Below, in pieces: positions 22,702 to 47,769 of a stretch of 64,000 nt of DNA. The notes beneath the pieces were generated by a model. It saw only the letters and a list, made by a program, of their open reading frames with translations. It searched no databases and was not told the origin of the DNA. The DNA comes from Gammaproteobacteria bacterium (GTDB lineage Bacteria > Pseudomonadota > Gammaproteobacteria > QZLD01). Where the stretch lies: NCBI GenBank assembly GCA_033852075.1, contig JAWSVC010000010.1, positions 105,683 through 169,682 on the forward strand, read 5' to 3'. A program made the position numbers and the translations under genes. Within the stretch, counting starts at the first letter, position 1; the number at the start of each line of letters is the position of its first letter.

Positions 22702-22708
22702 TTCGCGC

Positions 22709-22816
22709 CTATTTCCCCAAATACTGCGTTATATCTCCAGACTTATTCGGGCACATATTTCATATATGCTTCCTCATAAGGCTTCGATATGCCTTGTCTT
22801 TGGGAAAATATTCTGC
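22709..22816. repeat. ~105-bp MITE-like intergenic element, copy A, with imperfect terminal inverted repeats
   Basis: About 80% identical to 33058-33166. Termini TATTTCCCCAAA ... TTTGGGAAAATA are inverted repeats, and there is an internal hairpin AAGGCTTCG..GCCTTG. Confidence 0.55.
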
Positions 22817-22887
22817 GAATTAACTGTGCCCGGGCAGTATGTGCGTTTATTTTTTATAAACCGCGCCTTGATCTTGAAAAAATATCC

Positions 22888-23446: not shown

Positions 23447-23474
23447 CGTCATACCGGCAAATGTCGGTATCCAG
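23447..23474. repeat. REP-like hairpin unit CGTCAT-accggcaaatgtcggt-ATCCAG
   Basis: Same flank and stem architecture as the units at 11479-11574 and 56179-56259. Confidence 0.6.
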
Positions 23475-31032: not shown

Positions 31033-31200
31033 ATGGCTCCAAATGATAATAACTACATGGGTAAAGAGCGAAGAAATCAGCAGCGGCGTACAGGTCAAGA
31101 TCGTAGGCAAATGGTGCGTTTTAGTGAAAAAGCTGACAGGAGAACCGGAAAAGATCGGCGTAATTTTAGAGGGGTTTGGAATACACGCTGTACTATTTAG
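31033..31200 (+). CDS. Candidate 55-aa arginine-rich micro-protein with tandem RRTGxDRR repeats
   Basis: MAPNDNNYMGKERRNQQRRTGQDRRQMVRFSEKADRRTGKDRRNFRGVWNTRCTI. An AAGGGTGG ribosome-binding site lies 6 nt upstream. It is below the ORF-track size cutoff and has no known family. Confidence 0.25.
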   Translation: MAPNDNNYMGKERRNQQRRTGQDRRQMVRFSEKADRRTGKDRRNFRGVWNTRCTI

Positions 31201-31240
31201 TTAGCTCAAATAATCATTTCAGAATTCTGTTATGCCGGTA

Positions 31241-31368
31241 CAGGTATTAATACCGTTCGTGCTGAGCGCGAAGCAGTCGAAGTATGAAACGGTATTGATG
31301 AAAGGTTTGCAAGCACCCTTCGACTGCTCGTACCTCGCGCTCAGGATGAACGGGATTTTAAGCTTTTA
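31241..31368 (+). repeat. Composite palindromic intergenic element, copy 1
   Basis: CCGTTCGTGCTGAGCGCGAAGCAGTCGAAG ... CTTCGACTGCTCGTACCTCGCGCTCAGGATGAACGG are imperfect ~30-nt inverted arms. About 85% identical to 47577-47736 and to the reverse complement of 37224-37357. Confidence 0.7.
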
Positions 31369-31506
31369 ATACTCTTCATCCATTAATAGCATTAGCAAAT
31401 TTGAATGGGTAATTTATAAGTAAGTGGTTTTTATCTTTAGCTACCAGCAAAATCCCTTCTATGCTACGATCTGCCTTTCTCTGAACGGATTCATTTTAAT
31501 AAAGCA

Positions 31507-33051
31507 ATGAGCAAATCACTTCTAAAATCTTCATTTGTCGTAGCAATAATGACTATGCTTTCACGAGTATTTGGCGTGGTGCGCGATATTGTTTTTTCTC
31601 ACTACCTTGGGGCAACCGGTGGTGCCGATGCGTTTTTTATTGCGTTTAAGATTCCAAATCTGATGCGTCGCATCTTTGCCGAAGGCGCCTTTTCGCAAGC
31701 ATTTATTCCAGTGCTTGCGGATCATAAGCACGAAGGTGATCATGAGTTAACTCGTAGATTTATCAGTGATGTTTGGGGGACGTTGGGAGCAATTCTGTTT
31801 GTAATATCTGTGGCTGGGGTATTTTTGGCTCCAATAATTGCCTTTATATTTGTTCCTGGTTGGTACTTTGATAAGCAGGAACAATATCAGCTAACCGTGC
31901 TGCTGTTGCGCTTTACTACTCCGTATATTCTGTTTATTTCGCTTGTTGCTTGTGCGGGCGGAATACTTAATTCTTATGGTAAGTTTGCGGTGCCTGCGTT
32001 TACTCCGGTACTTTTAAATATCTGCCTGATTCTGGCAACTATATTTATGGCACCGCACTTTTCTAATCCGCAGGTTGGGATAGCTTGCGGAGTGTTTGTT
32101 GCTGGGGCAGTGCAGTTGCTGTTTCAGTTGCCGTTCCTGTTTAAGCTTAATGTGCTTGGTAGACCTGGCTGGGGTTGGAATACCCCGGCGGTGAAAAAGA
32201 TCGTGAAGCTGATGCTGCCTTCTATTGTGGGGTCGTCGGCAGCGCAGATCAATCTGCTGATTGGCAGTATTCTGGCTTCACTGCTGGTTACCGGAAGCGT
32301 GAGTTGGCTTTACTATTCAGATCGTCTTATGGAGTTTCCGGTCGGGGTATTCGGAATTGCCGTATCAACGGTGATTCTACCGAAATTATCTGAGCAGCAT
32401 GTTGGCGATAATCAGGAACATTTTTCGCGCACGTTGGATTGGGCCTTACGTTTGGTTTTGGTTATTGGAACGCCGGCGGTGGTCGGTTTGATTTTTCTTT
32501 CTGAGCCAATAATTGCGACCATATTTGGTCATGGCGCTATTTCTGCGCATGATGTTACTCAGTCATCCAATAGTTTGATTGCCTATGCAATTGGTACGCA
32601 GGGGTTTATTCTAGTAAAGGTGTTGTCACCTGGTTTTTTTGCGCGCAAGGATACCAAGACTCCGATGAAGTTTGGTTTGGTGGCTGTTGTAACAAATATC
32701 GTATTAAGTCTTATCTTGCTGTATCCGCTGCAGCATGTTGGCCTGGCTCTGGCTACTTCTTTAGCTGCAATAGTAAATGCGGGATTGCTGTTTATCACTC
32801 TGTATCGACGCAAGATATATGTCCCGGAACATGGTTGGGGAATTATGATTCTGCGCACCATATTTGCCAATGCGTTTCTGGCCGCATTTTTGATTCACTT
32901 TTCTTCGATCGATAGTCATTGGTTTGATGAGCTATTGCTGGATAAAGTGATTTTTCTGCTGGAGGTGGTAGTTGGTGGCGGTGTGTTGTATTTCTTTGTT
33001 TTAGCTTCATTTGGGTTGCGGCCATCCCACCTAAAAGCCGATATCCACTGA
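31507..33051 (+). CDS. murJ: Lipid II flippase MurJ (MviN)
   Basis: 514 aa with 14 TM segments. N-terminus LTMLSRVFGVVRDIVFSHYLGATGGADAFFIAFKIPNLMRRIFAEGAFSQAFIPVL is diagnostic. Confidence 0.93.
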   Translation: MSKSLLKSSFVVAIMTMLSRVFGVVRDIVFSHYLGATGGADAFFIAFKIPNLMRRIFAEGAFSQAFIPVLADHKHEGDHELTRRFISDVWGTLGAILFVISVAGVFLAPIIAFIFVPGWYFDKQEQYQLTVLLLRFTTPYILFISLVACAGGILNSYGKFAVPAFTPVLLNICLILATIFMAPHFSNPQVGIACGVFVAGAVQLLFQLPFLFKLNVLGRPGWGWNTPAVKKIVKLMLPSIVGSSAAQINLLIGSILASLLVTGSVSWLYYSDRLMEFPVGVFGIAVSTVILPKLSEQHVGDNQEHFSRTLDWALRLVLVIGTPAVVGLIFLSEPIIATIFGHGAISAHDVTQSSNSLIAYAIGTQGFILVKVLSPGFFARKDTKTPMKFGLVAVVTNIVLSLILLYPLQHVGLALATSLAAIVNAGLLFITLYRRKIYVPEHGWGIMILRTIFANAFLAAFLIHFSSIDSHWFDELLLDKVIFLLEVVVGGGVLYFFVLASFGLRPSHLKADIH

Positions 33052-33057
33052 ATTTTT

Positions 33058-33166
33058 TCCTATTTTGTCCAATACTGCGTTATAGCTCCAGACTTGTTCA
33101 GTTACATATTGCAATATGCGCCTTCACAAGGCTTCGCTTTGCCTTGTCTTGGGCAAAATATGCTAA
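33058..33166. repeat. ~105-bp MITE-like intergenic element, copy B
   Basis: Paralogue of 22709-22816, with terminal inverted repeats CTATTTTGTCCAA / TTGGGCAAAATAT. The ORF 33094-33291 inside it is spurious. Confidence 0.55.
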
Positions 33167-33301
33167 AAATTAAAAGTCTACTGTATTGTATTCGCATTGC
33201 GTTTTTTATTCGTAAAATAAGTAGCATGCTGTTGTTCGGAGCAGGTTGGAATGTGGAGTTTATAAGCTGGGTTCAAATAGTAATTAATTAGCAGCTTTTT
33301 T

Positions 33302-33329
33302 TCTGGATTCCCGCCTTCACGGGAACGAC
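33302..33329. repeat. REP-like hairpin unit (inverted orientation, slightly degenerate)
   Basis: CTGGAT-tcccgccttcacgggaa-CGACG. Confidence 0.5.
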
Positions 33330-33426
33330 GGATGCGTAAATGCAAAAAACCCTTAATTTAACTCGCAATTATCCGCTATTTTTAGGATAATCTACGGTTC
33401 TGGTTGTCCGGTACGTCACTTGGGAT

Positions 33427-34356
33427 ATGCACTTAATACGCTCTTTAGAACAGTTCAGGCATCATTATGATGGTTGTGTAGCAACTATCGGTAATTTTGA
33501 TGGCGTCCATCTTGGGCATCAAAAGATGATGCGCGAGCTTAAAGAGAAAGGAAAAGAGCTGAATCTGCCGGTTGTGGTAATAACCTTTGAGCCGCATCCA
33601 AAAGATTACTTTGTACCTCAGTTTGCGCCATCGCGAATTTGCCGTTTGCGCGATAAGCTGGTATTTCTGCGCGATTGCGGTATTGATTACGTATATTTGA
33701 TTCGTTTTAACAGCCAGATTGCGCATATGAAAGCAGGAGCCTTTGTAGATGATGTGCTGGTAAGTGGTTTTGGAATCAAATATCTGGTAGTTGGTGATGA
33801 CTTCAGATTCGGCGCTGCCAGAGAAGGTGACTTTGACCTGCTGGTAACTCAGGGGAAGGATAAAGGTTTTGCTGTATCGCGCATGCCAACCTATCCACTG
33901 GATGGTGCCAGAGTCAGTAGCTCCAGAATTCGTGCCTGCCTTATGGAGAACGATATTGGTTATGCCGCCAAGTTATTGGGGCGGGAATACAGTATTTCTG
34001 GCAGAGTAAGGCATGGTTTAAAGCTGGGCCGAAAGTTAGAATTTCCAACTGCAAATATTGGTATGCCGCAGATGCCATTTCCATTGAACGGTGTGTATTT
34101 TGTTCGGGTTTATGGGCTTGACGATAAATCATATCCTGCTGTTGCCAATGTTGGATGCAGGCCAACAGTGGATGGAACATTGACTGTTTTAGAGGTGCAT
34201 ATACTTGAGTTTGACGAAGATATATATGGACGTTATATTCGAGTTGGTTTTCTCCATTTTTTGCGACCAGAGCAAAAGTTTGATTCCGTAGATGAACTAC
34301 GTAAGCAGATTGAGCAGGATGTTGCTCAGTCGAAAAAGTTTTTTAATTTAAATTAA
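33427..34356 (+). CDS. ribF: Bifunctional riboflavin kinase / FMN adenylyltransferase
   Basis: [11 protein letters not shown], and the riboflavin-kinase C-terminal domain PTANI...GVYFVRV. Confidence 0.93.
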
Positions 34357-34358
34357 AA

Positions 34359-37199
34359 TTGGGTATGCCCGTGACAAAAGACTATAAAGATACGCTAAAC
34401 CTTCCTGAAACCGAATTTCCAATGCGCGGAAATTTGGCTAAACGTGAGCCAGATATGCTGAAAGACTGGCAGGAAAAAGATATCTACAACAAGATTAGAG
34501 AGATATCCAAGGGAAGAGATAAGTATATTCTGCATGACGGCCCTCCGTATGCGAATGGTGATATCCATATCGGTCATGCGGTAAACAAGATCCTGAAAGA
34601 TTTTATTATCAAGAGTAAAACTCTAAGTGGTTACGATGTGCCTTATATCCCAGGCTGGGACTGTCATGGTCTGCCGATTGAAACTCAGGTCGAAAAGAAG
34701 GTTGGCAAGGTTGGTAAAAAAGTAGATGCCAAAGGCTTCAGAGATCTGTGTCGTGAATATGCGGGTAAGCAGGTTGAAGGGCAAAAACGTGATTTTGTTC
34801 GTCTTGGTGTATTTGGTGAGTGGGATAATCCATATTTGACTATGGATTATAGAACCGAGGCCGATATCCTGCGTGTTCTTGGTAAGGTGATCGAAAATGA
34901 TCACTTAGTACGTGGTTTTAAGCCGGTACACTGGTGTATGGATTGTGGCTCATCTCTGGCAGAGGCCGAGGTCGAATACGAAGATAAAGAATCACCAGCG
35001 ATTGATGTTAAGTTTGATGTGGTTGATAAGGCTGCGTTTCTTGAAAAGACCGGTTGTGAAATAAACGGTGTTGATCCTGCCCTAGTTATCTGGACCACAA
35101 CTCCGTGGACACTTCCTGCTAACCGCGCTGTATGTTTGCATCCTGATCTGGATTATGTGGTCGTATCTTTTGTTCAAGAAGGCAATAAACAGCTGGTTTT
35201 GTTGGCAGAGGCACTCTACAGTCAGGCAGTATTGCGCTATGGTGCGGAAGATGTACTGGTGGTTGGCAGATGCCGTGGTTGTGATTTGGAAAATATGGAG
35301 CTTAAACATCCGTTCTACGATCGTATTGTGCCGGTGATTCTTGGTGAGCACGTTACAACCGATACTGGTACCGGAGCGGTTCATACAGCCCCTGGTCATG
35401 GCGTTGACGACTATGTGGTTGGTCAGCGTTACGGTATTGAAGTAGATAATCCGGTTGGTGCTAATGGCTGCTTCCTGGAAGGGACCGAACTGTTTGCAGG
35501 TGAACACGTGTTTAAGGCAAATCCAAAGGTGGTTGAGGTTCTTAAAGAGCGTGGCGCGTTGTTGAAACATGAAAAACTACTGCACAGCTATCCACACTGT
35601 TGGAGACATAAAACCCCGGTGATTTTCCGTGCTACACCACAGTGGTTTATTGGTATGGAAAAGAAAGGTCTGCGCAAAGGCTGTGTTGATGCCATTAATA
35701 ATGTTGAGTGGATCCCAGGCTGGGGTAAGGCTCGTATAGAAGGGATGGTGGAAAAATCTCCGGACTGGTGTATTTCGCGTCAGCGTATTTGGGGAGTTCC
35801 GATTGCGCTATTCGTGCATAAAGAGACTCAAGAGCCGCATCCAGACAGTGTAAAACTGATCGAAGAGGTTGCGAAAAAAGTTGAGCATGGTGGTATCGAT
35901 GCCTGGTTCGAACTGGAAGCGGAAGAGCTTATCGGTGCTGATGCGGAAAGCTATGAAAAGGTACACGATACCCTGGATGTATGGTTTGATTCCGGCGCTA
36001 CCAACTATTCAGTAATTGATCAGCGCGATCAGCTGGAGTTTCCGGCAGATCTTTATCTTGAGGGTTCCGACCAGCATCGTGGCTGGTTCCAAACCTCACT
36101 GAAACTTTCAATGGCAATGCGTGGTAAGCCGCCATTTAAAAATGTTCTGACCCATGGCTTTGTGGTAGATGCTCACGGTAAGAAAATGTCCAAATCTGCT
36201 GGTAATGTAGTGTTGCCACAAAAGGTATTTAACTCATTGGGTGCTGATATCCTCAGACTGTGGGTAGCAGCAACCGATTACACCACCGAGATGCGAGTAT
36301 CGGATGAAATCTTAAAGCGAGCAGCTGATTCTTATCGTCGTATGCGTAATACCTCGCGTTTCCTATTGGCTAATCTTTCTGGATTTGATCCAAAACAGCA
36401 TATGTTGGAATCATCAGAAATGATTGCCATCGATCGCTGGGCTATGGATCGTGCGGCTGAAATTCAGGAAGAGGTAATTAAGGCCTATGATGATTTTGAT
36501 TTTCATCTTATCTACCAGAAGGTGCATAACTTCTGTTCTGTGGATATGGGGGGGTTCTATCTAGATATCATCAAAGACAGGCAATATACAACTGCAACAG
36601 ACAGTGTTGCTCGTCGTTCTGCGCAAACTGCTATCTATCACATTGTTGAAGCGTTGACTCGCTGGTTGGCTCCGATCCTGAGCTTTACCGCAGATGAGAT
36701 TTGGAAAGAGATTCCTGGTGAGCGTGAAGAGTCTGTATTCTTCGTAACCTGGTATGAAGGTTTGCAGCGTCTTGAGCAGGATGGCAAACTTAATAAAGGT
36801 TTCTGGGATAGTCTGTTGGCAGTTCGCGAAGGGGTGAATAACTCTCTGGAAGGGTTAAGATCCGGTAAGCAGATTGGTTCATCGTTGGATGCTGAGGTGA
36901 CTATCTACTGTGATGATACGCTGTTGGAAAAATTGTCTGCGGTTGGTGATGAATTGCGCTTTGCGTTAATTACATCTTATGCGGCAGCAAAACCTCTAAG
37001 TGAAGTAGGTGATGTTGAGATTGTTGAGATCGAAAGTGGCGAGAAATATGCAGTGGCTGCCACAGTATCCAAGCATACAAAGTGTGTGCGCTGCTGGCAT
37101 CATCGCGAAGATGTTGGTGGTGATGCTGAACACCCTGGTCTTTGTTCAAGATGTGTCGAGAATGTTACTACCTGTGGTGAAAATCGGCAGTTTGTGTGA
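34359..37199 (+). CDS. ileS: Isoleucine--tRNA ligase
   Basis: 946 aa with HIGH ([12 protein letters not shown]), KMSKS, and a C-terminal zinc-finger CxxC...CxxC. Confidence 0.97.
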
Positions 37200-37223
37200 T
37201 TAGTATGTTTACTGGTAAAGCAT

Positions 37224-37357
37224 AAAAGCTATTCCGTTCATCCTGAGCGTGAGGTACGAACAGTCGAAGGGTGATAGTAAAAAGCCGAATTAATACCGTT
37301 TCATACTTCGACTGCTTCGCGCTCAGCACGAACGGCATTAATTTCCCCGGACAGCAG
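37224..37357 (-). repeat. Composite palindromic intergenic element, copy 2 (inverted)
   Basis: Reverse complement matches copies 1 and 3, including the flank CATTAATTTCCCCGGACAGCAG. Confidence 0.7.
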
Positions 37358-37448
37358 TGGGACTTGACTCGGTATCCAGTAAAAGAAAGTTTGCAGCGCG
37401 AAGCGCTAATTTTACGTAATATTAATGAATAGGATTCTTTTGGAGTAG

Positions 37449-37949
37449 TTGATGCTTAAGTGGTTATGGTTATCTGTAGTTGTAGTGATTGCCGATCAGA
37501 TAACCAAGATATTGGTTATTCAGAACTTTGAATATCAGGACGCAGTTGCCGTTTTGCCTGTATTTAATTTGGTGCACGTACATAATTTTGGTGCAGCGTT
37601 CAGCTTTTTAAGTACTGAAAGTGGTTGGCAGCGCTGGCTATTTGCCGGATTGGCGATAGTTATCAGCGTAATGATAGTATTTTGGATAAGCCGATTGAAA
37701 ATTGGTGAACGATTCACTGCTATTGGGCTTGCTCTTGTTTTAGGCGGTGCGGTTGGTAATTTGGTTGACCGTATTTATCATGGATATGTTATTGATTTTT
37801 TAGATTTTCATCTTGGAACAAATCATTGGCCTGCGTTTAATGTTGCTGATATTGCTATATCGGTTGGGGTTGTTGCGCTTATTATTCTTTCTTTTTTTGA
37901 TAAGAAGGATGTTATTGATAATAAAAAAGAGATTAACCAGAATGGTTGA
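37449..37949 (+). CDS. lspA: Lipoprotein signal peptidase II
   Basis: 166 aa with 4 TM segments, FNLVHVHNFGAAFSFL and NVADIAISVG. Confidence 0.92.
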   Translation: MMLKWLWLSVVVVIADQITKILVIQNFEYQDAVAVLPVFNLVHVHNFGAAFSFLSTESGWQRWLFAGLAIVISVMIVFWISRLKIGERFTAIGLALVLGGAVGNLVDRIYHGYVIDFLDFHLGTNHWPAFNVADIAISVGVVALIILSFFDKKDVIDNKKEINQNG

Positions 37950-38886
37950 GAAAATTCTGGTAGCCAATCCTCGTGGTTTTTGTGCTGGTGTGCAACGGGC
38001 AATTCAGATTGTTGAAACTGCATTGGCAAAATTTGGAGCACCAATATACGTAAGACATGAGATTGTACATAACCGTTTTGTGGTTGAAGGCCTAAAGGAT
38101 AAAGGGGTTGTTTTTGTCGAAAACGTTGAAGAGGTTCCTGAAGGAGAGATTGTAATATTTAGTGCTCATGGTGTTTCCAAGGAAGTAGAAAATAAGGCAA
38201 TTAATAGGAATCTACGTGTATTTGACGCAACTTGTCCACTTGTGTCTAAGATTCATTCTCAAGTTGTATCTAATGCAAAGGAAGGTAGGGATACGATTTT
38301 GATAGGGCATCCAGGTCATGCAGAGGTGGAAGGAACTCTTGGTCAATTTGCTGGGGCGGTTGCTTGTAGAGCAAAAATTCATGTTGTGGCAAATTTAGAT
38401 GATGTAGATAAGCTTGATATTGATGCTGAGAAGCCACTGGCATATGTGACTCAGACTACCCTATCCGTTGATGATGCAAGAGATATTTTGAGCTCTTTGC
38501 AGAAGAAGTATCCATATATTACTGGTCCTAAAAGTAAAGATATCTGTTATGCGACGCAAAATCGTCAAGATGCTGTAAAGAAGCTATCCAAACAGTCTGA
38601 TGTTATCTTTGTTGTAGGATCTAAAAATAGTTCCAACTCCAATCGATTGCGAGAAATTGGTGAAAAACATGGGGTGATGACATATCTGGTTGATTGTGCT
38701 GATGAAATAGAAGATTTTATGCTGCATGATGTGAAGATTGTTGGTGTTACCGCAGGTGCCTCTGCTCCTGAAGAGTTGGTGCAGGAAGTATTGAAAAAAT
38801 TAAGTAATGATGGGGCGGTTATTGAGCAGTTGGATGGGGTGGCGGAAAAAATAGTATTTTCTTTACCAAAACAATTGTTAAGATAG
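37942..38886 (+). CDS. ispH: 4-hydroxy-3-methylbut-2-enyl diphosphate reductase
   Basis: MVEKILVANPRGFCAGVQRAIQIVE, SAHGVS, and the three conserved Cys. The start overlaps the lspA stop (ATGGTTGA). The ORF-track 5' extension (37813) is an out-of-context reading through lspA. Confidence 0.93.
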   Translation: MVEKILVANPRGFCAGVQRAIQIVETALAKFGAPIYVRHEIVHNRFVVEGLKDKGVVFVENVEEVPEGEIVIFSAHGVSKEVENKAINRNLRVFDATCPLVSKIHSQVVSNAKEGRDTILIGHPGHAEVEGTLGQFAGAVACRAKIHVVANLDDVDKLDIDAEKPLAYVTQTTLSVDDARDILSSLQKKYPYITGPKSKDICYATQNRQDAVKKLSKQSDVIFVVGSKNSSNSNRLREIGEKHGVMTYLVDCADEIEDFMLHDVKIVGVTAGASAPEELVQEVLKKLSNDGAVIEQLDGVAEKIVFSLPKQLLR

Positions 38887-38960
38887 TCAATATGGCTAAA
38901 ATGAATGTTGATGGTTAAATCGCTAATTCGTATATAAAAAAATATAGCAAAGGGATTAAT

Positions 38961-39338
38961 TTGGTTGAAGGCAAAGACAAGACGATCTTAATTGTTGATG
39001 ATAGTAAGCTAGCAAGGCTAATAATCAGTAATATCATTAATGCATGTTATCCTCACTGGAAAATTATTGAGGCTGAGGATGTTGTTGATGCCGCAGAAAA
39101 ATCAAAGGGTAGATCTTTTGATGCTATTTCTCTTGATGTAAATATGCCTGGAGAGGATGGTTTGTCGTTCGCACCAAGGCTTAAAAAGATGTGCCCGGAT
39201 ATTCCAATTGCATTGCTTACGGCTAATATTCAACCTAAGGTGCAGGAAAGGGCAAAAGAATTGGGGCTTTATTTTATACCTAAGCCAATAACTAAAGATA
39301 AACTTGCCGGTTTTATGCAAGTTGTTTTGCAAAAGTGA
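38961..39338 (+). CDS. Single-domain response regulator (CheY-like receiver), TTG start
   Basis: KTILIVDDS, phospho-acceptor region LDVNMPGEDG, LLTAN, and the conserved K in FIPKP. Confidence 0.5.
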   Translation: MVEGKDKTILIVDDSKLARLIISNIINACYPHWKIIEAEDVVDAAEKSKGRSFDAISLDVNMPGEDGLSFAPRLKKMCPDIPIALLTANIQPKVQERAKELGLYFIPKPITKDKLAGFMQVVLQK

Positions 39339-39490
39339 TAAAAAAACTGACATCTTGTGTAAAAAAGCTTGACATTGCTGGTTATCGATACTAGCATTAT
39401 AGTGAATAAGCCTTTGTTTTATAATTCTTTTGTGAAGTTGTTTGGGGACACGCAATTAGGCTTCATTACTTTTTAAAACGAGAGTCATAG

Positions 39491-40933
39491 ATGGATATAA
39501 CAGCGCGCAAGCCATTTAATAACCCTATCTTATGGAATAAATACATTAGAGTATTTAGAAGCTATGTTCCGGCGTGGTTATTGGTGCTTGGTATTATTGA
39601 ACTACTGGTGCTGATGATTATTTCGGTGTTTGCAGCGGCAGAATTTGATTTCTATCAGTTGTTTGCTGCTGATGGTAATTGTTTTTCATGCCTTTTTAAG
39701 GCTGGAATATTTAGTATTACTATTTGGTTGTCTATGATCTCAATGGGATTGTATCAGCGTAGGTTGCGAGAAGGTGCTGCAGGTATTGCGTTGAGAGTTG
39801 TTATAAGTCATATATTTGGAGCAATAGCTCTATTTTGTTTTTATTTCATTATCCCCAATATATCTATTGATTTTAAAATTACTTTTGCCGCATTAATTAT
39901 CTCATATATATCTATATTGATGGTTAGAATTGCCTTTCTGCGTTTGGTGGGTACAGAAGTTTTCAAAAGTAGAGTTATGGTTTTAGGTACTGGAGAAAAG
40001 GCTGGGGGTATAACTCATCTTAAGCGTTGGATTGATACGGTTGGCTATACTTTGGTTGGTTTTATAAATGTTGGTAATAGTGAACCAAAGATAGATATAG
40101 ACCGCATAATAGATTCGAAAGGTAAAACTTTGGCTCAACTAGTTCGTGAATATTGCGTTGATGAAATTGTTATTGCCTTTGATGATCGCCGTCGGCGTAT
40201 GCCTATGGACGATTTGCTTGATTGTAAAATGCTTGGGGTGAGAGTTGTAGATCTTATTACCTTCTATGAAAGGGAAACCTATAAGCTTAAATTAGATGTT
40301 ATGGATCGGAGTTGGTTGATCTTTTCAGATGGATTTCAGCAAGGTGTATATGCTCGGTGGATAAAGCGAATATTGGATATTATTGTTAGTGGTTCAATAT
40401 TGTTAATAACGATGCCTATTATGGTAATCACTGCCATTGCGATAAAATTAGAAAGTCATGGAGGAGTATTTTATTCCCAAAAAAGAGTTGGTTTTGCTGG
40501 TAAGCTATATTCTGTGCACAAGTTTCGCAGTATGGTGGCCAATGCCGAAAAAAACGGAGCTCAATGGGCAACCAAGAACGATAGTCGGGTAACAAAGGTT
40601 GGAGGGTTTATCCGTCTGACGCGGATTGATGAGCTTCCACAATTATGGAATGTATTAAAAGGTGATATGAGTTTTGTCGGGCCACGCCCTGAACGTCCAG
40701 AGTTTGTTGATCAGTTTTGTGAACGGATTGAATATTATGCAGAACGGCATAGGGTAAAACCTGGTATAACTGGTTGGGCACAGGTGTGTTATCCATATGG
40801 TGCATCGGAAAGTGATGCGTTCGAGAAACTTCAATACGACCTTTATTATGCCAAGAATAGCAGCCTGTTTCTTGATCTTATGATTATATTGCAGACAGTT
40901 GAGGTTATAGTTTGGCAAAAAGGGGCTCGCTGA
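39491..40933 (+). CDS. epsB: EPS polyprenyl glycosylphosphotransferase, EpsB-type (PEP-CTERM-system-associated sugar transferase)
   Basis: 480 aa with N-terminal TM helices and a C-terminal bacterial sugar-transferase domain (PGITGWAQV, DLYYAKNSSLFLDLMIILQT). It sits immediately upstream of prsK/prsR/prsT. Confidence 0.75.
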   Translation: MDITARKPFNNPILWNKYIRVFRSYVPAWLLVLGIIELLVLMIISVFAAAEFDFYQLFAADGNCFSCLFKAGIFSITIWLSMISMGLYQRRLREGAAGIALRVVISHIFGAIALFCFYFIIPNISIDFKITFAALIISYISILMVRIAFLRLVGTEVFKSRVMVLGTGEKAGGITHLKRWIDTVGYTLVGFINVGNSEPKIDIDRIIDSKGKTLAQLVREYCVDEIVIAFDDRRRRMPMDDLLDCKMLGVRVVDLITFYERETYKLKLDVMDRSWLIFSDGFQQGVYARWIKRILDIIVSGSILLITMPIMVITAIAIKLESHGGVFYSQKRVGFAGKLYSVHKFRSMVANAEKNGAQWATKNDSRVTKVGGFIRLTRIDELPQLWNVLKGDMSFVGPRPERPEFVDQFCERIEYYAERHRVKPGITGWAQVCYPYGASESDAFEKLQYDLYYAKNSSLFLDLMIILQTVEVIVWQKGAR

Positions 40934-40997
40934 TTTTTTGCAGGGCGTATAGCAATCCGCCAATAATAATTCCGCACGATAGAGAGATATAAATAGA

Positions 40998-43109
40998 ATG
41001 ATAAATCTAACTCTTGTAGCCTACATCGTATGTGCGGTAGCTTACCTGTTTCTTTTTGTTGTCTTGCTTATTGGGTGGCGGGGTAAAAAGGAGGGTGCGG
41101 TATTATTACTTGTCAGCGTACTTACTTTTGTATGGGCAATTTCAGGAATGTTAGTTACCGTTTCTCACGGTCATTTGGTAGCAATATCATTAATAATTGA
41201 AGGTTTAAGAAATGTTGCGATCATTGCTTTTTTGTTAACGTTATTGAAAAAGGTAACCTCTTTAGTTATTGAAGGCGAACATGTAAAGTCTTCACCCTAT
41301 TATTATTCAGTGTTGTCGGTATCAATTTTAATTCTGGCTTACAGTATAGGAATAGATCTGTTAACTAGTTTTACCCCTTGGATTGGTACAGTAACCCCAG
41401 GCATTTCCGGTCACTTGGCGACTTCAGTTTTAATCTTAGCGTTACTTGAACAACTCTATAGAAATACTGCAAATGAAAAGCGCTGGGGAATAAAATATAT
41501 AAGCTTGGCTTTTGCTGGAATATTTGTATATGAATTTTATCTCTATGCAGATTCTTTGCTTTTTAGTCGGATTGAGGCTGGAATTTGGGGCGCGCGCCCT
41601 TGGATTGTGGCTGTAGTATCACCATTAATAGCGGTTTCAGCTGCCAGGAATCCTAAATGGTCGCTCGATGTTTACGTTTCCAGGCAGGCTGTATTTCATA
41701 CTGCAACCCTTATTTGTGCAGGCATCTATTTATTATTAATGTCAATTGCCGGATTCTATATCAAAAAATATGGTGGCGATTGGGGGGCTGTAGCACAAGC
41801 GGTCTTTATTTTTGCGGCAATAATGGGGCTTTTATTAATTGTATTGTCCGGAAAAGCACGCTCATGGTTAAAGGTAACGGTTAATAAACATTTTTTTAAT
41901 TATAAATATGACTATCGTGAAGAGTGGATCAGATTTAATAAAACGCTAACCGCTCTTGATGATATTTTACCAATTCGAAATCGAGCGATTAAATCATTGG
42001 CACAGATAGTAGAGTCGCCAGCCGGACTGTTATTCAGCAAAAACCAGAATGGTGATTATCATCTTGCTGCAAATTGGAATACCCCTTTGCCAAAATCAGA
42101 CCTTATAGAAAGGGATGATCCATTAGCATTATTTATTGAAGAGAAGGAATGGATTATTGACCTGAATGAAAAAGCTAAGACTATAAGGAGCGAAGTTGGA
42201 GGGGGTAAAGGTGATATGAAGTATCAGCATTTGGTAATTGGAGATACCTTAAGTTGTGAAGAATACAGGTTTATAGTGCCGCTGTTAAATGAATCAGAGA
42301 TGTATGGTTTTGTTGTATTAAACGAACCTAGGTCTAAGCGTACCCTTAATTGGGAAGATGTTGATATATTAAAAACAGCTGGAAACCAGGTGGCTAGCTA
42401 TCTTGCTCAATTTGATGCTAATAACCAATTAACTATATCTAGGCAGTTTGAGGCTTATAATAGGCTTTCAACATTTGTAATTCATGATGTAAAGAACCTA
42501 GTAGGTCAGTTAACGCTGCTAAGTGCTAATAGCAAAAAGTTCAGACATAATGAAAAGTTTATTGACGATGCCTTCGAAACTGTAGAAAACGCTGTAGATA
42601 AGATGAATCATTTACTTGAACAGCTACGCAGCGGTATTGAGAAAAAGATTGTAGGAAGAGTCAATATTAGTGAACTGATGAAAACCATTATTCAGTTACG
42701 TAAGGCATCTGGTATTGAGATAGAAATTTATGATGATAGTAGTGCAAACTTTATTAGTGCAGATAAGCAGGAGCTTTCTGCTGTAATTGAGCATATTTTG
42801 CAAAATGCGATTGATGCTACAGTATCAAATAAGGAACAGGCTAAAGTGAAGATCTGTATCAACTCAGATGCAGAATTTTCTACTGTAAAAATTGAAGATA
42901 ATGGAGAGGGAATGAGCAGAGAGTTTATTCGTGATCGTCTTTTTTCTCCATTTGATACAACTAAAGGGGATTCTGGTATGGGGGTTGGTGTATATCAAGC
43001 AAGAGAATATATCACCAGGATTGGCGGTAGGATTGAAGTATGTAGTGAAGTAGGAATTGGTACAACTTTTGAGTTGTATCTGCCACTCGCAGTTTCAAGT
43101 GAAGAGTAA
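40998..43109 (+). CDS. prsK: PEP-CTERM-system sensor histidine kinase PrsK-like
   Basis: 703 aa with about 8 N-terminal TM helices, a central GAF-like region, an H-box region FVIHDVKNLVGQL, and an HATPase C-terminus. It is adjacent to a sigma-54 response regulator and a large TPR protein. Confidence 0.7.
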   Translation: MINLTLVAYIVCAVAYLFLFVVLLIGWRGKKEGAVLLLVSVLTFVWAISGMLVTVSHGHLVAISLIIEGLRNVAIIAFLLTLLKKVTSLVIEGEHVKSSPYYYSVLSVSILILAYSIGIDLLTSFTPWIGTVTPGISGHLATSVLILALLEQLYRNTANEKRWGIKYISLAFAGIFVYEFYLYADSLLFSRIEAGIWGARPWIVAVVSPLIAVSAARNPKWSLDVYVSRQAVFHTATLICAGIYLLLMSIAGFYIKKYGGDWGAVAQAVFIFAAIMGLLLIVLSGKARSWLKVTVNKHFFNYKYDYREEWIRFNKTLTALDDILPIRNRAIKSLAQIVESPAGLLFSKNQNGDYHLAANWNTPLPKSDLIERDDPLALFIEEKEWIIDLNEKAKTIRSEVGGGKGDMKYQHLVIGDTLSCEEYRFIVPLLNESEMYGFVVLNEPRSKRTLNWEDVDILKTAGNQVASYLAQFDANNQLTISRQFEAYNRLSTFVIHDVKNLVGQLTLLSANSKKFRHNEKFIDDAFETVENAVDKMNHLLEQLRSGIEKKIVGRVNISELMKTIIQLRKASGIEIEIYDDSSANFISADKQELSAVIEHILQNAIDATVSNKEQAKVKICINSDAEFSTVKIEDNGEGMSREFIRDRLFSPFDTTKGDSGMGVGVYQAREYITRIGGRIEVCSEVGIGTTFELYLPLAVSSEE

Positions 43110-43122
43110 TAGGCTAGGCATT

Positions 43123-44478
43123 ATGGAACAAGATAATAGAAAACTATTGATCGTAGAAGATGATAAGGGACTTCAAAAGCAGCTGAAGTGGAGCTTTGAG
43201 GAGTTTGAAGTAATTATTGCAGAAAATCGTCAGAGTGCTATCAAAGAATTACGCAGGCATGAGCCTGCTGTTGTTACCCTGGATTTGGGTTTGCCTCCGG
43301 ATAGTAATGGAGCAACGGAAGGGTTAGCAACTTTAACCGAGATTATTCAACTTGCACCACATACAAAAGTGATTGTTGTAACCGGAAATGATGATCGAGA
43401 GAATGCAGTTAAGGCTGTGAGTTTAGGGGCATATGATTTCTATCAAAAACCTGTAGATGCTGAAGTTCTTCAGTTGATAGTTAATCGTGCTTATGCATTG
43501 GCAGAATTAGAAGAAGAAAATCGAAAGCTCAAGAAAGGAGGACCTGATAGTCCTCTGGATGGAGTAGTTGCATCTAGCCCGGAAATGTTAAAGGTATGTA
43601 GAACTGTTGAAAAGATATCGTCTGTAGAAGTGACGTCTTTATTGCTTGGTGAAAGCGGTACCGGTAAAGAGGTTATAGCAAAAGCGATTCATCAGTTAAG
43701 TCCTCGCGCACATAATAATTTTGTAGCGATAAACTGTGCTGCTATTCCAGAAAATCTATTAGAGAGTGAACTATTCGGATATGAAAAAGGTGCTTTTACC
43801 GGAGCGGCCAAAAGAACTATTGGGAAAATAGAGCATGCCAATAAAGGAACATTGTTCTTGGATGAAATTGGTGATTTGCCAATGTCTTTGCAGGCTAAAC
43901 TGTTAAGATTTTTACAGGAGCGAGTGATAGAACGCTTGGGGGGCAGGGAGGAAATTCCTATTGATGTCAGAGTTATTTGTGCAACTAACCAAAATTTGGA
44001 AGAGTTGATAAAAAATAGTGGATTTAGAGAGGATCTTTACTATCGTGTAAGCGAGGTTGTGATAAATCTGCCTCCGCTTAGAGATAGAAAAGGTGATTCC
44101 TTAGTTATAGCTAAAAATTTCCTTAACAGGTTTGCTATGCAATATGGCCGTAAAATCAAAGGATTTAGTTCTGATGGCGTGGTTGCTATTGAAGGGTATA
44201 AGTGGCCAGGTAATGTTAGAGAGTTGGAAAATAAACTTAAACGTGCAGTTGTGATGGCTGATGGTGAATTTATTACCGCTGAGGATTTGGAATTGAGATC
44301 CGACGAAAATGTAGCACAGATGCCGTTTAATCTTAGACAAGTTAGAGATGAGGCAGAAAGGGGATGTATAGTAAATGCATTAGCCTATACTGAAGGGAAT
44401 ATATCTCATGCTGCGGAATTGTTGGGTGTAACCCGTCCAACCTTATATACCATGTTGAATAAGTATGGATTAGGGTGA
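43123..44478 (+). CDS. prsR: Sigma-54-dependent response regulator (PEP-CTERM-box regulator PrsR-like)
   Basis: Receiver domain (LLIVEDDKGL), AAA+ sigma-54 activator domain (GESGTGKE, GAFTGA, ESELFGYEKGAFTG), and a C-terminal HTH. Start at MEQDNRK (ATG 43123). Confidence 0.85.
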   Translation: MEQDNRKLLIVEDDKGLQKQLKWSFEEFEVIIAENRQSAIKELRRHEPAVVTLDLGLPPDSNGATEGLATLTEIIQLAPHTKVIVVTGNDDRENAVKAVSLGAYDFYQKPVDAEVLQLIVNRAYALAELEEENRKLKKGGPDSPLDGVVASSPEMLKVCRTVEKISSVEVTSLLLGESGTGKEVIAKAIHQLSPRAHNNFVAINCAAIPENLLESELFGYEKGAFTGAAKRTIGKIEHANKGTLFLDEIGDLPMSLQAKLLRFLQERVIERLGGREEIPIDVRVICATNQNLEELIKNSGFREDLYYRVSEVVINLPPLRDRKGDSLVIAKNFLNRFAMQYGRKIKGFSSDGVVAIEGYKWPGNVRELENKLKRAVVMADGEFITAEDLELRSDENVAQMPFNLRQVRDEAERGCIVNALAYTEGNISHAAELLGVTRPTLYTMLNKYGLG

Positions 44479-44739
44479 GGGTGTAATATTTAATAACACA
44501 TTTTCCCTTCTCAAATCAAAGTGCTTACAGGCTCAATTTGTAATTTGATTGTTGAGGCTGTTGGGCGGGATTCTTCGATTTTCGAAGGAGAAATCTGTTA
44601 TTATTCATGAGCCTGATATTGTTGATGATATTTTTTCGGGCGGCTGAGAGTGAAGGTTGGTATCCAGTTTTTAATAAGCGTATTAAAACAGAAAAAAGTA
44701 ATAGGAATATTAAATTCTAGAAAGGAACAGGGGTTAAAA

Positions 44740-47508
44740 ATGTTTAAAAAGATAGTCATGGTTCTTATCGCATCATTTTTGATGCAGATGGCAGTTACCG
44801 CAAATGCTGCATCAAAAGAGCAGTATTTGCAGAGTGCAAAGAAGTATTTTCGCGAAAATAAATTTCGTGAGGCCATAATTGAGCTTAAAAATGCTATTAA
44901 GGATGATCCTGAATACATAGATGCCAGAATATTTCTAGGTGATGTAAATGCGGCTACTGGTCAGCCACTTGCAGCAGAAAAAGAATATTTATACGCAAAA
45001 AAAGCAGGAGCAAAGGCATCGCTGTGGATGTTGCCGCTTGGAGATGTTTATATAGGAATGGGGCGTTACGATGAAGTATTATCTCAACTTAAACTTGGCA
45101 CCGATGCCACCCCTGAAGAATTATCGAAATTGTCAGTGCTTCGTGGAATGGCTTATGCTGGCTTGAAAAAGAAAGACAAGGCTGAAGAGGAGTTTGTTCG
45201 TGCTAGTCAGCTAGATGAAAAAAATGCCAGGGCATATCTTGGTCAGGCATCTCTTATGGTTAATCCGGATCAGTTGGATAAGGTGGAAGAGTTTATTTCC
45301 AAAGCTATAGAAGTGGAACCAAAGTTAGTCGATGCTCATCTGGCAATGACCACAGCAAAACTAAGAAGAAAGGATGTTGATGCAGCCATAGTTTCAATCG
45401 AAAAGGCTAGAGAATTATCTCCTTACAATATAAGAGTATTATTGGCAGCATCAGATATCTATCTTCTTAAAGGAAATTTAGATAAGGCTCAGGAAGACGT
45501 AGATACCGTTTTAAAGTCCCATCCATCGTTACCGATTGCAAATCATGTGAAGGCAATGGTTTCATATTCGCGGCAGGACTATGAAAGTGCAAAAAATCAT
45601 GCAGATAAAGTGTTAAGGGTTTCTAAGGACTATTTGCCTGCTATTCGTCTGCTTGGTGCAATTGCCCTTAATCGTGGAGAATATAACTCTGCTCAGGAAT
45701 TGTTACAAAAGGCTCATAGTCTTGCTCCAAAAGATATAAAGGTATTAAGAGCCTTGGCAGATACCCAATATCGGGCCAGTGAATATGCAAAAGCAAAAAT
45801 AAGCTTGAAGAATCTTCTAGAGCTTGATGAGAAAGATGCTGCTGCCATGTCTATGTTAGGTTCTGTTTATCTAAAACTTGGTGAAAAGGAAAAGGGTAAA
45901 CAATATATGGAGCAAGCAGTAAAACTTGATCCGAACGCTGCCAAGCTAAAAACCAATCTGGCTTTGGCCAATATTGCGATGGGGGATACAAAAGGCGCCA
46001 TTAATGCTCTTGAAGCAATAGGTGTAGGTGATGAATCTGCTAGATCTGATGCGTTACTGGCAATGGCATATGCAAAAGATAAGGAATATGACAAAGCTTT
46101 TGAAATTGCAAACAGGATGATAGATGGTGATGTTAGTTTATCTGGGGCTTACAATTTACGTGGTGAGATAAATCTAATGGCCAAAAATAACGAAGCAGCT
46201 CTTGCTGATTTCGCTAAGGCAATAGAAATTAATTCGGATAATAATAAGGCAATGCTAAACCTTGCGCGAACCAATGCAATATTGGGTAAATATGATTTGG
46301 CGCAACAGCAATTTCAGAAGTTACTGGAAAAAAAGAAAGATAATCTAGAGGCTATGCTAGGGCTAGTTGAGATAGCAAGACTAAATAAAAATCAACTTCA
46401 GGTTCAAAGTTGGTTAGAAAAAATCAATGAATTACATCCTACTCATATTCCATCTGCCGGTTTGTTGGTAAGTGTTTATCTGGGCCAAAAGGAATACCTA
46501 AAAGCGCTAGGGGTTTCTAGGAAGCTATATCAGTTATATCCTAAAAATGCTGATGTGATTGCTTTGTATGCAGAGCAGTTGATGCAAAATGGTGAAAATA
46601 AACAAGCTGCAAATTATTTTAAAGATGCATTGGATATAAAAACTGATGATCCGAAATTATATATTAGATTGGCTAGAGCCTATGCCGCAGATAAGGCAAA
46701 TAAAAAGGCCTTAGAAACAATTGATAAAGGTCTTAAGGAGTTGCCGGAAAACATTCCTCTACTTAAGGGTAAGGTGCGTGTATTAAAGCATGATAAGCAA
46801 GATGATAAGGCTTTAGTATTGTGTGAACAGTTAATGAAAAAGTTGCCACAAGATCCATTTGCTTATGATTTTGCAGGAGATATTTATGTTCAGCAAGAAA
46901 AGTATAAAAAAGCGGATGAACTATATCGCAAGACGATAGATCTTCAAGATAATCCGCAAACAAGGATTAAACTTCATAAGTTACTTACATTAAAAGGTAA
47001 AAATGACGAGGCTTTGGATCTTTTGCGAGAATGGTATAAGAAAGATAATGCATCGCAGCAGCTAAATGCCGTGTTTGCTCTTAATTTACAGCAGGTTGGA
47101 GTAAAAGATGAGGCAATTAAGGTTTATGAAGTAATGGTAAAAAATAATCCTAATGATCTTGTGGCACTGAATAATCTTGCCTGGATGTATATGGAAAAAG
47201 GTGATCTGGAGAATGCTCAGAAAACTGGTGAGCAAGCATATAAAATCAATCCGGAAATGGTTGCTGTGCTTGATACCTATGGCTGGATTTTAGTAAAAAG
47301 TGGCAAGATAGATGAAGGACAAAAATTACTGCAGCAAGCAGTTAGTAAGGCTCCACAAGATCGTGATGTCAGATATCATGTTGCTGCGACGTTAGCTAAG
47401 AAAGGGGATGTTAAGGGCGCTGTGATTGAACTGAAACAGGCTCTTTCTGGGGATGTGGATTTTCTGAGTAGGGAAGAGGCGCAGGAATTATTGCAGAAAC
47501 TGCAATAG
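44740..47508 (+). CDS. prsT: PEP-CTERM-system TPR-repeat protein PrsT-like (secreted or lipoprotein)
   Basis: 922 aa made almost entirely of TPR repeats, with an N-terminal signal peptide MFKKIVMVLIASFLMQMAVTANA. Position and size match PrsT. Start ATG 44740. Confidence 0.65.
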   Translation: MFKKIVMVLIASFLMQMAVTANAASKEQYLQSAKKYFRENKFREAIIELKNAIKDDPEYIDARIFLGDVNAATGQPLAAEKEYLYAKKAGAKASLWMLPLGDVYIGMGRYDEVLSQLKLGTDATPEELSKLSVLRGMAYAGLKKKDKAEEEFVRASQLDEKNARAYLGQASLMVNPDQLDKVEEFISKAIEVEPKLVDAHLAMTTAKLRRKDVDAAIVSIEKARELSPYNIRVLLAASDIYLLKGNLDKAQEDVDTVLKSHPSLPIANHVKAMVSYSRQDYESAKNHADKVLRVSKDYLPAIRLLGAIALNRGEYNSAQELLQKAHSLAPKDIKVLRALADTQYRASEYAKAKISLKNLLELDEKDAAAMSMLGSVYLKLGEKEKGKQYMEQAVKLDPNAAKLKTNLALANIAMGDTKGAINALEAIGVGDESARSDALLAMAYAKDKEYDKAFEIANRMIDGDVSLSGAYNLRGEINLMAKNNEAALADFAKAIEINSDNNKAMLNLARTNAILGKYDLAQQQFQKLLEKKKDNLEAMLGLVEIARLNKNQLQVQSWLEKINELHPTHIPSAGLLVSVYLGQKEYLKALGVSRKLYQLYPKNADVIALYAEQLMQNGENKQAANYFKDALDIKTDDPKLYIRLARAYAADKANKKALETIDKGLKELPENIPLLKGKVRVLKHDKQDDKALVLCEQLMKKLPQDPFAYDFAGDIYVQQEKYKKADELYRKTIDLQDNPQTRIKLHKLLTLKGKNDEALDLLREWYKKDNASQQLNAVFALNLQQVGVKDEAIKVYEVMVKNNPNDLVALNNLAWMYMEKGDLENAQKTGEQAYKINPEMVAVLDTYGWILVKSGKIDEGQKLLQQAVSKAPQDRDVRYHVAATLAKKGDVKGAVIELKQALSGDVDFLSREEAQELLQKLQ

Positions 47509-47576
47509 TTCTTTTTGCTATGTAGGGGCGCGGCGTGCCGTGCCCAAATAAGTTTCATCTTTCTGCTAATAGCGTT

Positions 47577-47736
47577 GTCATTCCCGCGAAGGCGTGCTGC
47601 TGTCTGGGGAAATTAATGCCGTTCGTGCTGAGCGCGAAGCAGTCGAAGTATGAAATGGTATTAATTCAGTTGTTTACTATCACCCTTCGACTGTTCGTAC
47701 CTCACGCTCAGGATGAACGGAGATTTTAAGCTTTTT
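47577..47736 (+). repeat. Composite palindromic intergenic element, copy 3, with a half REP unit (GTCATTCCCGCGAAGGCG) at its 5' end
   Basis: Aligns with 31241-31368, and in inverted orientation with 37224-37357. It lies between convergent prsT and the RND gene. Confidence 0.7.
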
Positions 47737-47769
47737 CTCATTCCCAAACTCCACCTGATAACGCATAAT

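Follow-up and report, generated by a model that had tools for sequence, protein, structure and literature searches.

An intergenic doublet of two CCGTTC-tagged hairpin units, probably a REPIN-like mobile repeat, in a gammaproteobacterial contig

The window analysed here, a 64,000-nt stretch of contig JAWSVC010000010.1 from a member of the Gammaproteobacteria, carries three copies of a short palindromic element that we call the doublet. In each copy two related hairpin units, A and B, lie on opposite strands with their sequence tags pointing outward and a spacer of about 21 nt between them. We hold, with moderate confidence, that the doublet is a non-autonomous mobile repeat resembling the REPINs (doublets of repetitive extragenic palindromic, or REP, sequences that form a hairpin), and more precisely two REP-type units joined head to head as a heterodimer. 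REP doublets are an ordinary class of object, and the REP family found here seems to be undescribed.

The first-pass annotation of the window had listed three copies, and their arms bear this out. The exact 30-mer CCGTTCGTGCTGAGCGCGAAGCAGTCGAAG constitutes arm 1 in 3 of 3 copies, with 0 expected (100 shuffles), and the 36-mer of arm 2 shows 0 to 2 mismatches among them. Because the arms are exact or nearly exact at three places where none is expected, a chance origin of the copies is excluded. Pairwise identity was measured on the core, i.e. the 108-109-nt segment common to all copies (ATTAAT...GAACGG), and amounts to 87%, 88% and 96%; copies 2 and 3 are 96% complementary across 125 nt. The identity of about 85% first proposed is therefore right for the core, but the wider limits then given to the copies yield only 72-81%. 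The terminal inverted repeats of the doublet (CCGTTCGTGCTGAGCG.../...CGCTCAGGATGAACGG) are imperfect. In the window the 40-nt units are found at 6 places, always in intergenic positions. Unlinked copies are homologous in the spacer as well (copies 2 and 3 agree at 96% over the whole core), and so the doublet, rather than the single unit, is what was copied.

Outside the core, two flanks had been described as conserved. The first, CATTAATTTCCCC(A/G)GACAGCAG, is found at copies 2 and 3 but not at copy 1, and the second, the T-rich GATTTTAAGCTTTT, is exact at copies 1 and 3 but not at copy 2. The CTGCTGTCYGGGGAA flank lies beside copies 2 and 3 only, and not beside all three. The accessory module CTGCTGTCTGGGGAA is likewise restricted to copies 2 and 3, being present neither at copy 1 nor at a fourth copy between nifE and nifN (see below). 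The outer part of the first flank, CTGCTGTCYGGGGA, is a separate repeat module, which adjoins a REP of the CGTC-tagged type in another genome too (L045). Copy 3 does lie beside a REP half-site, as had been noticed; it is half of a CGTC-type REP, and a GTAG-type REP is also near (Table 1).

The structure of the units was examined by gathering every CTGAGC...GTCGAAG in the fetched loci. This gave 253 matches, with 233 distinct units in four insert classes and 90+ loci analysed, from Colwellia, Thalassolituus, Neptunicella and others. Units share the frame CCGTTC(R)NN-CTGAGC-[insert]-GTCGAAG-NN. Pairing between CTGAGC and GTCGAAG consists of two Watson-Crick pairs, a tandem of sheared G.A and A.G, and two more pairs around a bulged T, and the insert forms a mini-hairpin of its own, capped by a GNA triloop. 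The insert is TT or CT in the short-insert members, GCGNAGC-A (8 nt) in arm 1 of the window, where unit A has GCGAAGC-A, and G(C/T)GAGGNACGA(G/A)C-A (14 nt) in arm 2; 16-nt relatives exist in other genomes. For unit B the insert reads G(C/T)GAGGTACGA(G/A)C-A. Compared to arm 1, arm 2 contains 6 extra bases, which make a fixed asymmetric bulge.

Covariation follows this structure. Pairs -1/+1 and -2/+2 are formed in 227 of the 233 units, a level that 0 of 2000 shuffles reached. In the 14-nt insert, i1/i13 is paired in all units, i2/i12 is C-G in 29, T-A in 14 and T.G in 2, and i5/i9 is G-C in 40 and A-T in 5. The tandem G.A and A.G are nearly or fully invariant (45/45 and 44/45), the GNA loop is present in 44/45, and partner-shifted controls gave no pairing. 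Variation of the 8-nt insert is mostly confined to the N of GCGNAGC. Because G.T and T.G wobbles (77) far exceed A.C and C.A (4), one strand folds, the one of CTGAGC...GTCGAAG sense. A passage of PMC13037366 gives GCGNAGC as the consensus of an unusually stable DNA mini-hairpin, and by analogy this match would lean towards folding of the units as single-stranded DNA. As for the tag, CCGNTN is present 5' of 189 of 236 units and its complement 3' of 19, in a count partly biased by the pattern, as CCGTTC was part of the search; since the complement is rare, the sequence behaves as a single-stranded tag.

The inverted arms of about 30 nt seen in the first pass are real, but the self-folding unit within each arm had been missed. 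Arm 2 of copy 1 differs from that of copies 2 and 3 at two positions only, and together these are a compensatory i2/i12 change from C-G to T-A, which keeps the unit hairpin and weakens pairing with arm 1. Because covariation keeps the units at the cost of arm-to-arm pairing, selection acts on the unit hairpins and not on the long arm-to-arm hairpin, which is a consequence of two related units standing head to head. The long hairpin expected by the first-pass annotation was found on RNA folding in every copy and on either strand, at -44 to -54 kcal/mol (z -4.1 to -6.4). Copy 3 folded as DNA also gave the long hairpin, at about -25 kcal/mol (z -5.6 to -6.9).

We then compared the sites of copies 1 and 2 with those of relatives. 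The closest public relatives are uncultured Gammaproteobacteria of coastal sediment biofilms, for example the metagenome-assembled genome 'Madre6' (41.1% GC; the window has 40.8%). Five loci of relatives, with RibF 86-92% identical at the amino acid level, have the same gene order as the window. Their ileS-lspA spacer is 26-34 nt long, versus about 250 nt in the window, which has some 227 nt beyond the relatives, copy 2 included. The element was not found in their pilin-murJ spacer either, that is, between a small open reading frame (ORF) and murJ. In that spacer, L094 has an ordinary terminator hairpin where the window has copy 1, and L099 combines a terminator with a CGTC REP and a short unit of the superfamily to which the doublet belongs. 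None of nine related loci (L094-L102) contains the doublet. It had been reasoned that a conserved regulatory sequence would be shared by relatives at orthologous sites, and at the sites of copies 1 and 2 it is absent from them.

Used as a protein query, the translated element returned a single cluster among 5.8 billion, P0126. It marks the fourth copy, which shares 85-90% identity with those of the window and is located between nifE and nifN in L103, L104 and L105 (three assemblies of the same coastal project). Other strains have no REP at this junction, or a dimer of short units (Table 1). As the element is absent from orthologous sites and variable at nifE-nifN, it behaves as an insertion-polymorphic repeat, and we conclude that the doublet is insertion-polymorphic among related strains. 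Among Logan short-read contigs of the same strain, the break points 31333 (a contig start) and 37260 (a contig end) fall within the second arms of copies 1 and 2, respectively. De Bruijn assemblers break contigs at repeats, and these breaks inside the copies suggest that there are more copies elsewhere in the source genome.

The arms extend well beyond this lineage. A loose 21-mer run on species-representative genomes found them, among the matches listed, in at least Colwellia, Thalassotalea, Neptunicella, Thalassolituus, Thalassocella, Cellvibrio and Bermanella. In Thalassolituus pacificus the same composite of two arms is present, its first 36 nt identical to those of the window, often in tandem arrays with a 132-nt period. 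Unit A is again joined to unit B in Thalassolituus (L005, L080), in L109 and in the low-GC contigs L108 and L112. A metagenome scan with the 30-mer of arm 1 returned 5 loci, again of Thalassolituus-like organisation. The core is nearly identical (36/36 nt) across several orders of marine Gammaproteobacteria. Viral contigs and plasmids gave 0 matches each, and thus no hint that the element came from a phage or a plasmid.

Throughout this superfamily, units are seen alone, as inverted dimers, and in clusters or arrays. Dimers are head to head (27), tail to tail (37) or head to tail (25), and inverted dimers are hetero in 54 cases versus homo in 10. One tandem array, in Colwellia (L030, 3040-3330), repeats arm-2 tails with a 33-nt period; two others, Thalassolituus-like (L080, 7650-8000, and L109, 5900-6300), repeat whole doublets plus an extra tail with a 132-nt period. 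Four diagnostic sequence strings occur in no open-access full text. GTCGAAG/CTTCGAC is absent from the REP catalogues of PMC3733652, PMC2817692 and PMC6006769, and CTGAGC from the first and the third; a Coxiella REP in PMC2817692 does have CTGAGC.

These properties are those of REP sequences in general: short (40-nt), imperfectly palindromic, intergenic repeated units with covarying stems, which occur as singletons, inverted dimers and clusters, the dimers often being heterodimers. As in REPINs, the doublet with its spacer is the replicating unit, with a core identity of 87-96%, and of 85-90% to the nifE-nifN copy. The first-pass annotation had left open whether the element was a transcriptional attenuator or terminator, a structured RNA or a mobile element; the absence at orthologous sites, the nifE-nifN polymorphism, the assembly breaks and the wide REP-like superfamily together favour the last. 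The doublet would then spread as a non-autonomous element: when DNA becomes single-stranded, the unit hairpins and the tag would be recognised and cut by an enzyme acting in trans. By analogy with what is thought of REPIN movement, this enzyme would most plausibly be a HUH/Y1 transposase, similar to RAYTs (tyrosine transposases that are associated with REPs). Effects on neighbouring genes (a hairpin at the 3' end, partial termination, mRNA stabilisation) would be a by-product.

A number of observations weigh against this reading. No RAYT was detected in the 64-kb window, either with a RAYT-like probe or with the RAYT of L107 as a probe, and in about 970 kb of fetched loci no transposase was linked to the CCGTTC family. 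The only bona fide RAYT there, that of L107, has inverted pairs of classical GTAG REPs (GTAGGGTGGGCAnTGCCCACC) on either side of it, and no CCGTTC units in their place. The GT(A/G)G tag is at neither end of our units, whose upstream consensus is CCGTTC(R)NN. Nor do they fit the CGTC-tagged REPs, since they lack the CGTC tag and their stem is interrupted. At nifE-nifN, a replacement rather than a simple insertion separates filled from empty junctions. The four copies have no direct repeat around them in common (TTAA is present on some sides only), and no clean empty site was found among the relatives, which are only 68-86% identical in DNA. Besides the three copies in the 64-kb window, a further 9.4 kb on one side contains 0. 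The exact subfamily is rare: its specific 21-mer had 0 matches in the JGI metagenomes, and P0126 is one cluster only among 5.8 billion. Nearest-neighbour folding prefers the long hairpin, single units reaching a z of only -0.6 to -2.5. Finally, related copies in the covariation counts are not independent events, and the loci used for covariation were picked by a pattern including CCGTTC, so that conservation of the tag is partly ascertained.

The RAYT of L107 (3348-3893 of JAWSVA010000005.1, assembly GCA_033852155.1) lies within a nif gene cluster and scores 197.6 bits with NF047646, for a cutoff of 80; used as a probe it gave no further match. A GTAG REP of the same type as those bordering it, GTAGGGTGGGCAATGCCCGCC, is present once in the window. 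The source organism probably also has a classical RAYT/REP system. Two other candidates were discarded. A 330-aa Y1-like ORF in L082, the one locus that the RAYT-like probe matched, was considered as the RAYT of the family, but it is below the NCBIfam cutoff, has no Pfam match and has a unit on one side only; a weak RAYT-probe match at 56364 of the window is the start of mutL. The window also contains CGTC-tagged REPs (CGTCATnCCnGCGAAGGCnGGnATCCAG), which are dRS3-like (PMC3733652); inverted dimers of them stand near 11.5 kb and near 56.2 kb. REPs of this kind are defined by a CGTC tag, a perfect stem of 8-9 bp, a loop of 4-5 nt and a 3-bp tail. The GTAG and CGTC REPs of the window are families separate from the doublet.

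A further proposal, which we make tentatively and regard as somewhat less probable than not, is that the units form a third REP superfamily beside the GTAG and CGTC ones, with the CCGTTC tag, tandem sheared G.A pairs and nested GNA mini-hairpins as its signature. If so, and because the core is nearly identical across orders, a dedicated, conserved enzyme binding single-stranded DNA would be implied, distinct from the co-resident GTAG-specific RAYT, that moves or maintains the units.

Table 1. Position of the doublets, their units and other REP features. Coordinates refer to the window unless a locus is named.
Feature	Position	Strand	Sequence or context
Arm 1 30-mer	31253-31282	+	exact match
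Arm 1 30-mer	37306-37335	-	exact match
Arm 1 30-mer	47619-47648	+	exact match
Copy 1, core	31246-31353	+	between 55-aa small ORF (31033-31200) and murJ (31507-33051)
Copy 1, unit A (arm 1)	31253-31292	+	CCGTTCGTG-CTGAGC-GCGAAGC-A-GTCGAAG-TATGAAACGG; GCGNAGC mini-hairpin insert
Copy 1, unit B (arm 2)	31314-31353	sense on -	CCGTTCATC-CTGAGC-GCGAGGTACGAGC-A-GTCGAAG-GGTG
Copy 1, T-rich tail (14-mer) after it	31354-31367	+	GATTTTAAGCTTTT
Copy 2, core (inverted)	37234-37342	-	between ileS (34359-37199) and lspA (37449-37949)
Copy 2, unit A (arm 1)	37296-37335	-	
Copy 2, unit B (arm 2)	37234-37273	sense on +	insert GTGAGGTACGAACA
Accessory module beside copy 2	37343-37357	-	CTGCTGTCTGGGGAA; outside core
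Copy 3, core	47612-47720	+	flanked by convergent genes, prsT (44650-47508) and an RND permease (47770-50958, minus)
Copy 3, unit A (arm 1)	47619-47658	+	
Copy 3, unit B (arm 2)	47681-47720	sense on -	
Accessory module beside copy 3	47597-47611	+	CTGCTGTCTGGGGAA; outside core
Copy 3, T-rich tail (14-mer) after it	47722-47735	+	GATTTTAAGCTTTT
GTAG-tagged REP	47522-47545	+	
GTAG-tagged REP	56290-56310	+	GTAGGGTGGGCAATGCCCGCC; type found around L107 RAYT
CGTC half site	47576-47594		
CGTC-tagged REP	11483-11506	-	CGTCATnCCnGCGAAGGCnGGnATCCAG
CGTC-tagged REP	11547-11570	+	CGTCATnCCnGCGAAGGCnGGnATCCAG
CGTC-tagged REP	23447-23470	+	CGTCATnCCnGCGAAGGCnGGnATCCAG
CGTC-tagged REP	33307-33330	-	CGTCATnCCnGCGAAGGCnGGnATCCAG
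CGTC-tagged REP	56179-56202	+	CGTCATnCCnGCGAAGGCnGGnATCCAG
CGTC-tagged REP	56236-56259	-	CGTCATnCCnGCGAAGGCnGGnATCCAG
nifE-nifN junction	L103 5085-5246; L104 93-254		doublet, read through as 53-aa ORF overlapping the nifE stop
nifE-nifN junction	L106 3996-3998		no REP, nifE and nifN adjacent; same sample, NifE 97% identical
nifE-nifN junction	L107 11386-11526		tail-to-tail dimer of short units GGCTGAGCGTAGTCGAAG

The contexts first assigned to the copies, pilin/murJ, ileS/lspA and PrsT/RND, are correct. Copy 1 lies downstream of the pilin gene and of the 55-aa small ORF, and upstream of murJ. The genes around the three copies (housekeeping, pilus, PEP-CTERM and efflux functions) are functionally unrelated, and the copies lie both ways round relative to transcription, copy 2 being opposite to ileS-lspA. 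The mosaic spacer at 47509-47769 combines a terminator-like hairpin with a GTAG REP, half of a CGTC REP and copy 3.

The main rival to a mobile repeat is an element selected by the host for its action on RNA, as a terminator or attenuator, a stabiliser of mRNA 3' ends or an RNase target, which we judge unlikely. In a terminator scan of the window the elements were not called. The very stable hairpins (-44 to -54 kcal/mol) speak for this rival, as does a T-rich tract placed after the hairpin in one orientation only, the canonical one (GATTTTAAGCTTTT for copies 1 and 3, GTTTTTGC for L104). All copies are intergenic, within or at the ends of operons, copy 1 stands where L094 has its ordinary terminator hairpin after the small ORF, and E. 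coli REP sequences and bacterial interspersed mosaic elements (BIMEs) are known to act in this manner. However, copy 2 is opposite to ileS-lspA transcription and orientations are mixed. The nifE-nifN copy is inside a read-through ORF of tightly linked genes, where a strong terminator would be harmful. Separate terminator-like hairpins are present at the end of prsT, upstream of copy 3 (47483-47513), and downstream of copy 2, before lspA (37395-37407). Relatives do without the element at the same sites, covariation keeps the unit hairpins at the expense of arm-to-arm pairing, and GCGNAGC is a hallmark of DNA hairpins. Rfam covariance models gave nothing at the gathering score, with chance-level matches only (E >= 4). 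A hammerhead or kink-turn reading of CUGA...GAA was dropped, as the core motifs do not fit and Rfam has no match. RNA effects (terminator, stabiliser) may occur as a side effect of a mobile repeat, and at the three window loci the doublets probably do no more than give the neighbours' transcripts a strong hairpin.

Rather less likely still is a classical miniature inverted-repeat transposable element (MITE), i.e. an internally deleted insertion sequence with terminal inverted repeats of about 30 nt, moved by a DDE transposase and producing target-site duplications. The doublet is small (about 110 nt), non-coding, dispersed, insertion-polymorphic and bounded by the imperfect terminal inverted repeats given above. 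But no direct repeat is consistently found around any of the four copies, the single arms, tandem arrays and head-to-head, tail-to-tail and head-to-tail combinations of other genomes are REP behaviour, and covariation inside each arm follows a hairpin. No insertion sequence with these ends was seen in the roughly 970 kb of fetched loci. A likeness of CGTTCnnnCTGAGCG to the Tn3 inverted repeat was also weighed and set aside, as the orientation would be inside-out and the match is short.

An attC-like site, or another recombinase site acting on folded single strands, is very improbable. The imperfect palindrome, the fixed asymmetric bulge of 6 extra bases in arm 2, the variable centre, the strand-specific folding and the 132-nt arrays of marine Gammaproteobacteria (L080, L109) recall such sites, whose core consensus is R''/R' RYYYAAC...GTTRRRY. 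Here the ends are CCGTTC...GAACGG, no cassette ORFs lie between sites in the arrays, copies are scattered singly between housekeeping genes, and none of the genes next to the three copies, the only part of the window checked for this, encodes an integrase. A conserved cis-regulatory sequence of three operons, or a chance similarity, can practically be set aside in spite of the position of all three copies at gene boundaries: the arm matches exclude chance, the absence from orthologous sites of relatives refutes a conserved sequence, the flanking genes are functionally unrelated, and the same units are found in many other genera at unrelated places.

Some further features of the window were recorded. 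Every 4-kb bin of 1-64000 shows a positive GC skew (+0.02 to +0.25), which makes the plus strand the probable leading strand throughout. The rest of the window-specific ileS-lspA insert (37358-37437) includes a fragment resembling the tail of a CGTC REP (GGTATCCAG), and the terminator-like AGCGCGAAGCGCT hairpin there (37395-37407) again contains GCGAAGC. The 55-aa small ORF between the pilin gene and murJ (31033-31200, plus strand) is Arg-rich (MAPNDNNYMGKERRNQQRR...) and is a called gene of 47-63 aa in most loci of relatives. A 45-aa ORF (MPVQVLIPFVLSAKQSKYETVLMKG...; 31232-31369, plus strand) covers the whole of copy 1 and is almost certainly a spurious product of the repeat, like P0126. Another repeat of about 115 nt, unrelated to the doublet, has two copies (22708-22823 and 33059-33173) that are about 80% identical, the second just past murJ and upstream of ribF. 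A 6S RNA is encoded at 19690-19874 on the minus strand (RF00013, 70.3 bits).

Few non-coding repeats of bacteria are as abundant as REP and REPIN elements, and to our knowledge only the GTAG type has a known mobilising enzyme. With its different tag, its non-canonical hairpin and its near-identity across distant genera, the CCGTTC family would make a useful second test case for how REPs are recognised, spread and retained. It is mildly unusual on two counts, the combination of tandem G.A pairs and a GNA hairpin with the CCGTTC tag, and the near-identical sequence across orders of Gammaproteobacteria. On the practical side, doublets break short-read assemblies of the source lineage and create spurious small ORFs (P0126; 31232-31369 of the window), and should be masked in annotation pipelines.

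Among known systems, the ERIC/IRU (enterobacterial repetitive intergenic consensus, or intergenic repeat unit) and the Correia elements of Neisseria are MITE-like, palindromic intergenic repeats of about 100-150 bp, found in transcribed regions and conserved across genera. They share with the doublet the size, the imperfect palindrome, the transcribed intergenic location and the conservation across genera, but they are single long palindromes with terminal inverted repeats, with a TA duplication in the case of Correia elements, whereas each arm of the doublet is an independent unit that also occurs alone and in arrays. There is no sequence similarity between them.

A closer sequence likeness is offered by the RAYT-associated REP of Coxiella burnetii, GTAGGTTGGGCTGAGCTTGCGAAGCCCAAC (Nunvar et al. 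2010, PMC2817692). Its core GGCTGAGCTTGCGAAGCC is similar to our units, and the inner motif CTGAGCTTG(T)CGAAG is common to it and to the short-insert members (CTGAGC-TT-GTCGAAG). Unlike them, it has a GTAG tag and a GTTGGGC/GCCCAAC outer stem. The likeness extends over 14-15 nt and may be convergent; it is a lead, not a proof.

In organisation, the doublet resembles the BIMEs of E. coli, whose Y and Z REPs alternate in orientation, and the GTAG- and CGTC-tagged dimers of Di Nocera et al. 2013 (PMC3733652). That catalogue describes the same habits: head-to-head dimers that carry their tags on the outside and have conserved spacers, heterodimers with partners of unequal loop length, units placed singly, in dimers or in clusters, and mixing with other REP families in one spacer, as is seen here at 47522-47720. 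Heterodimers have been suggested to escape hairpin-cleaving nucleases (PMC3733652). Compared to these elements, our units differ by the CCGTTC(R) tag, by a stem with non-canonical pairs and a nested hairpin, and by a core that is almost identical across several orders of Gammaproteobacteria. The REPINs of Pseudomonas fluorescens SBW25 and other bacteria (Bertels & Rainey 2011, PMC3116915, PMC3337134) are the closest parallel to the doublet as a whole. Both are inverted REP pairs of about 100 nt with a short spacer that is copied along with the units, both are intergenic, form a long hairpin, and are present or absent between relatives. The doublet stands apart from REPINs in having neither a GTAG/GTGG tag 5' of the hairpin nor, in the loci analysed, a RAYT gene flanked by it, and in its heterodimeric units (8-nt versus 14-nt insert), where tandem G.A pairs and GNA mini-hairpins take the place of a simple GC-rich stem.

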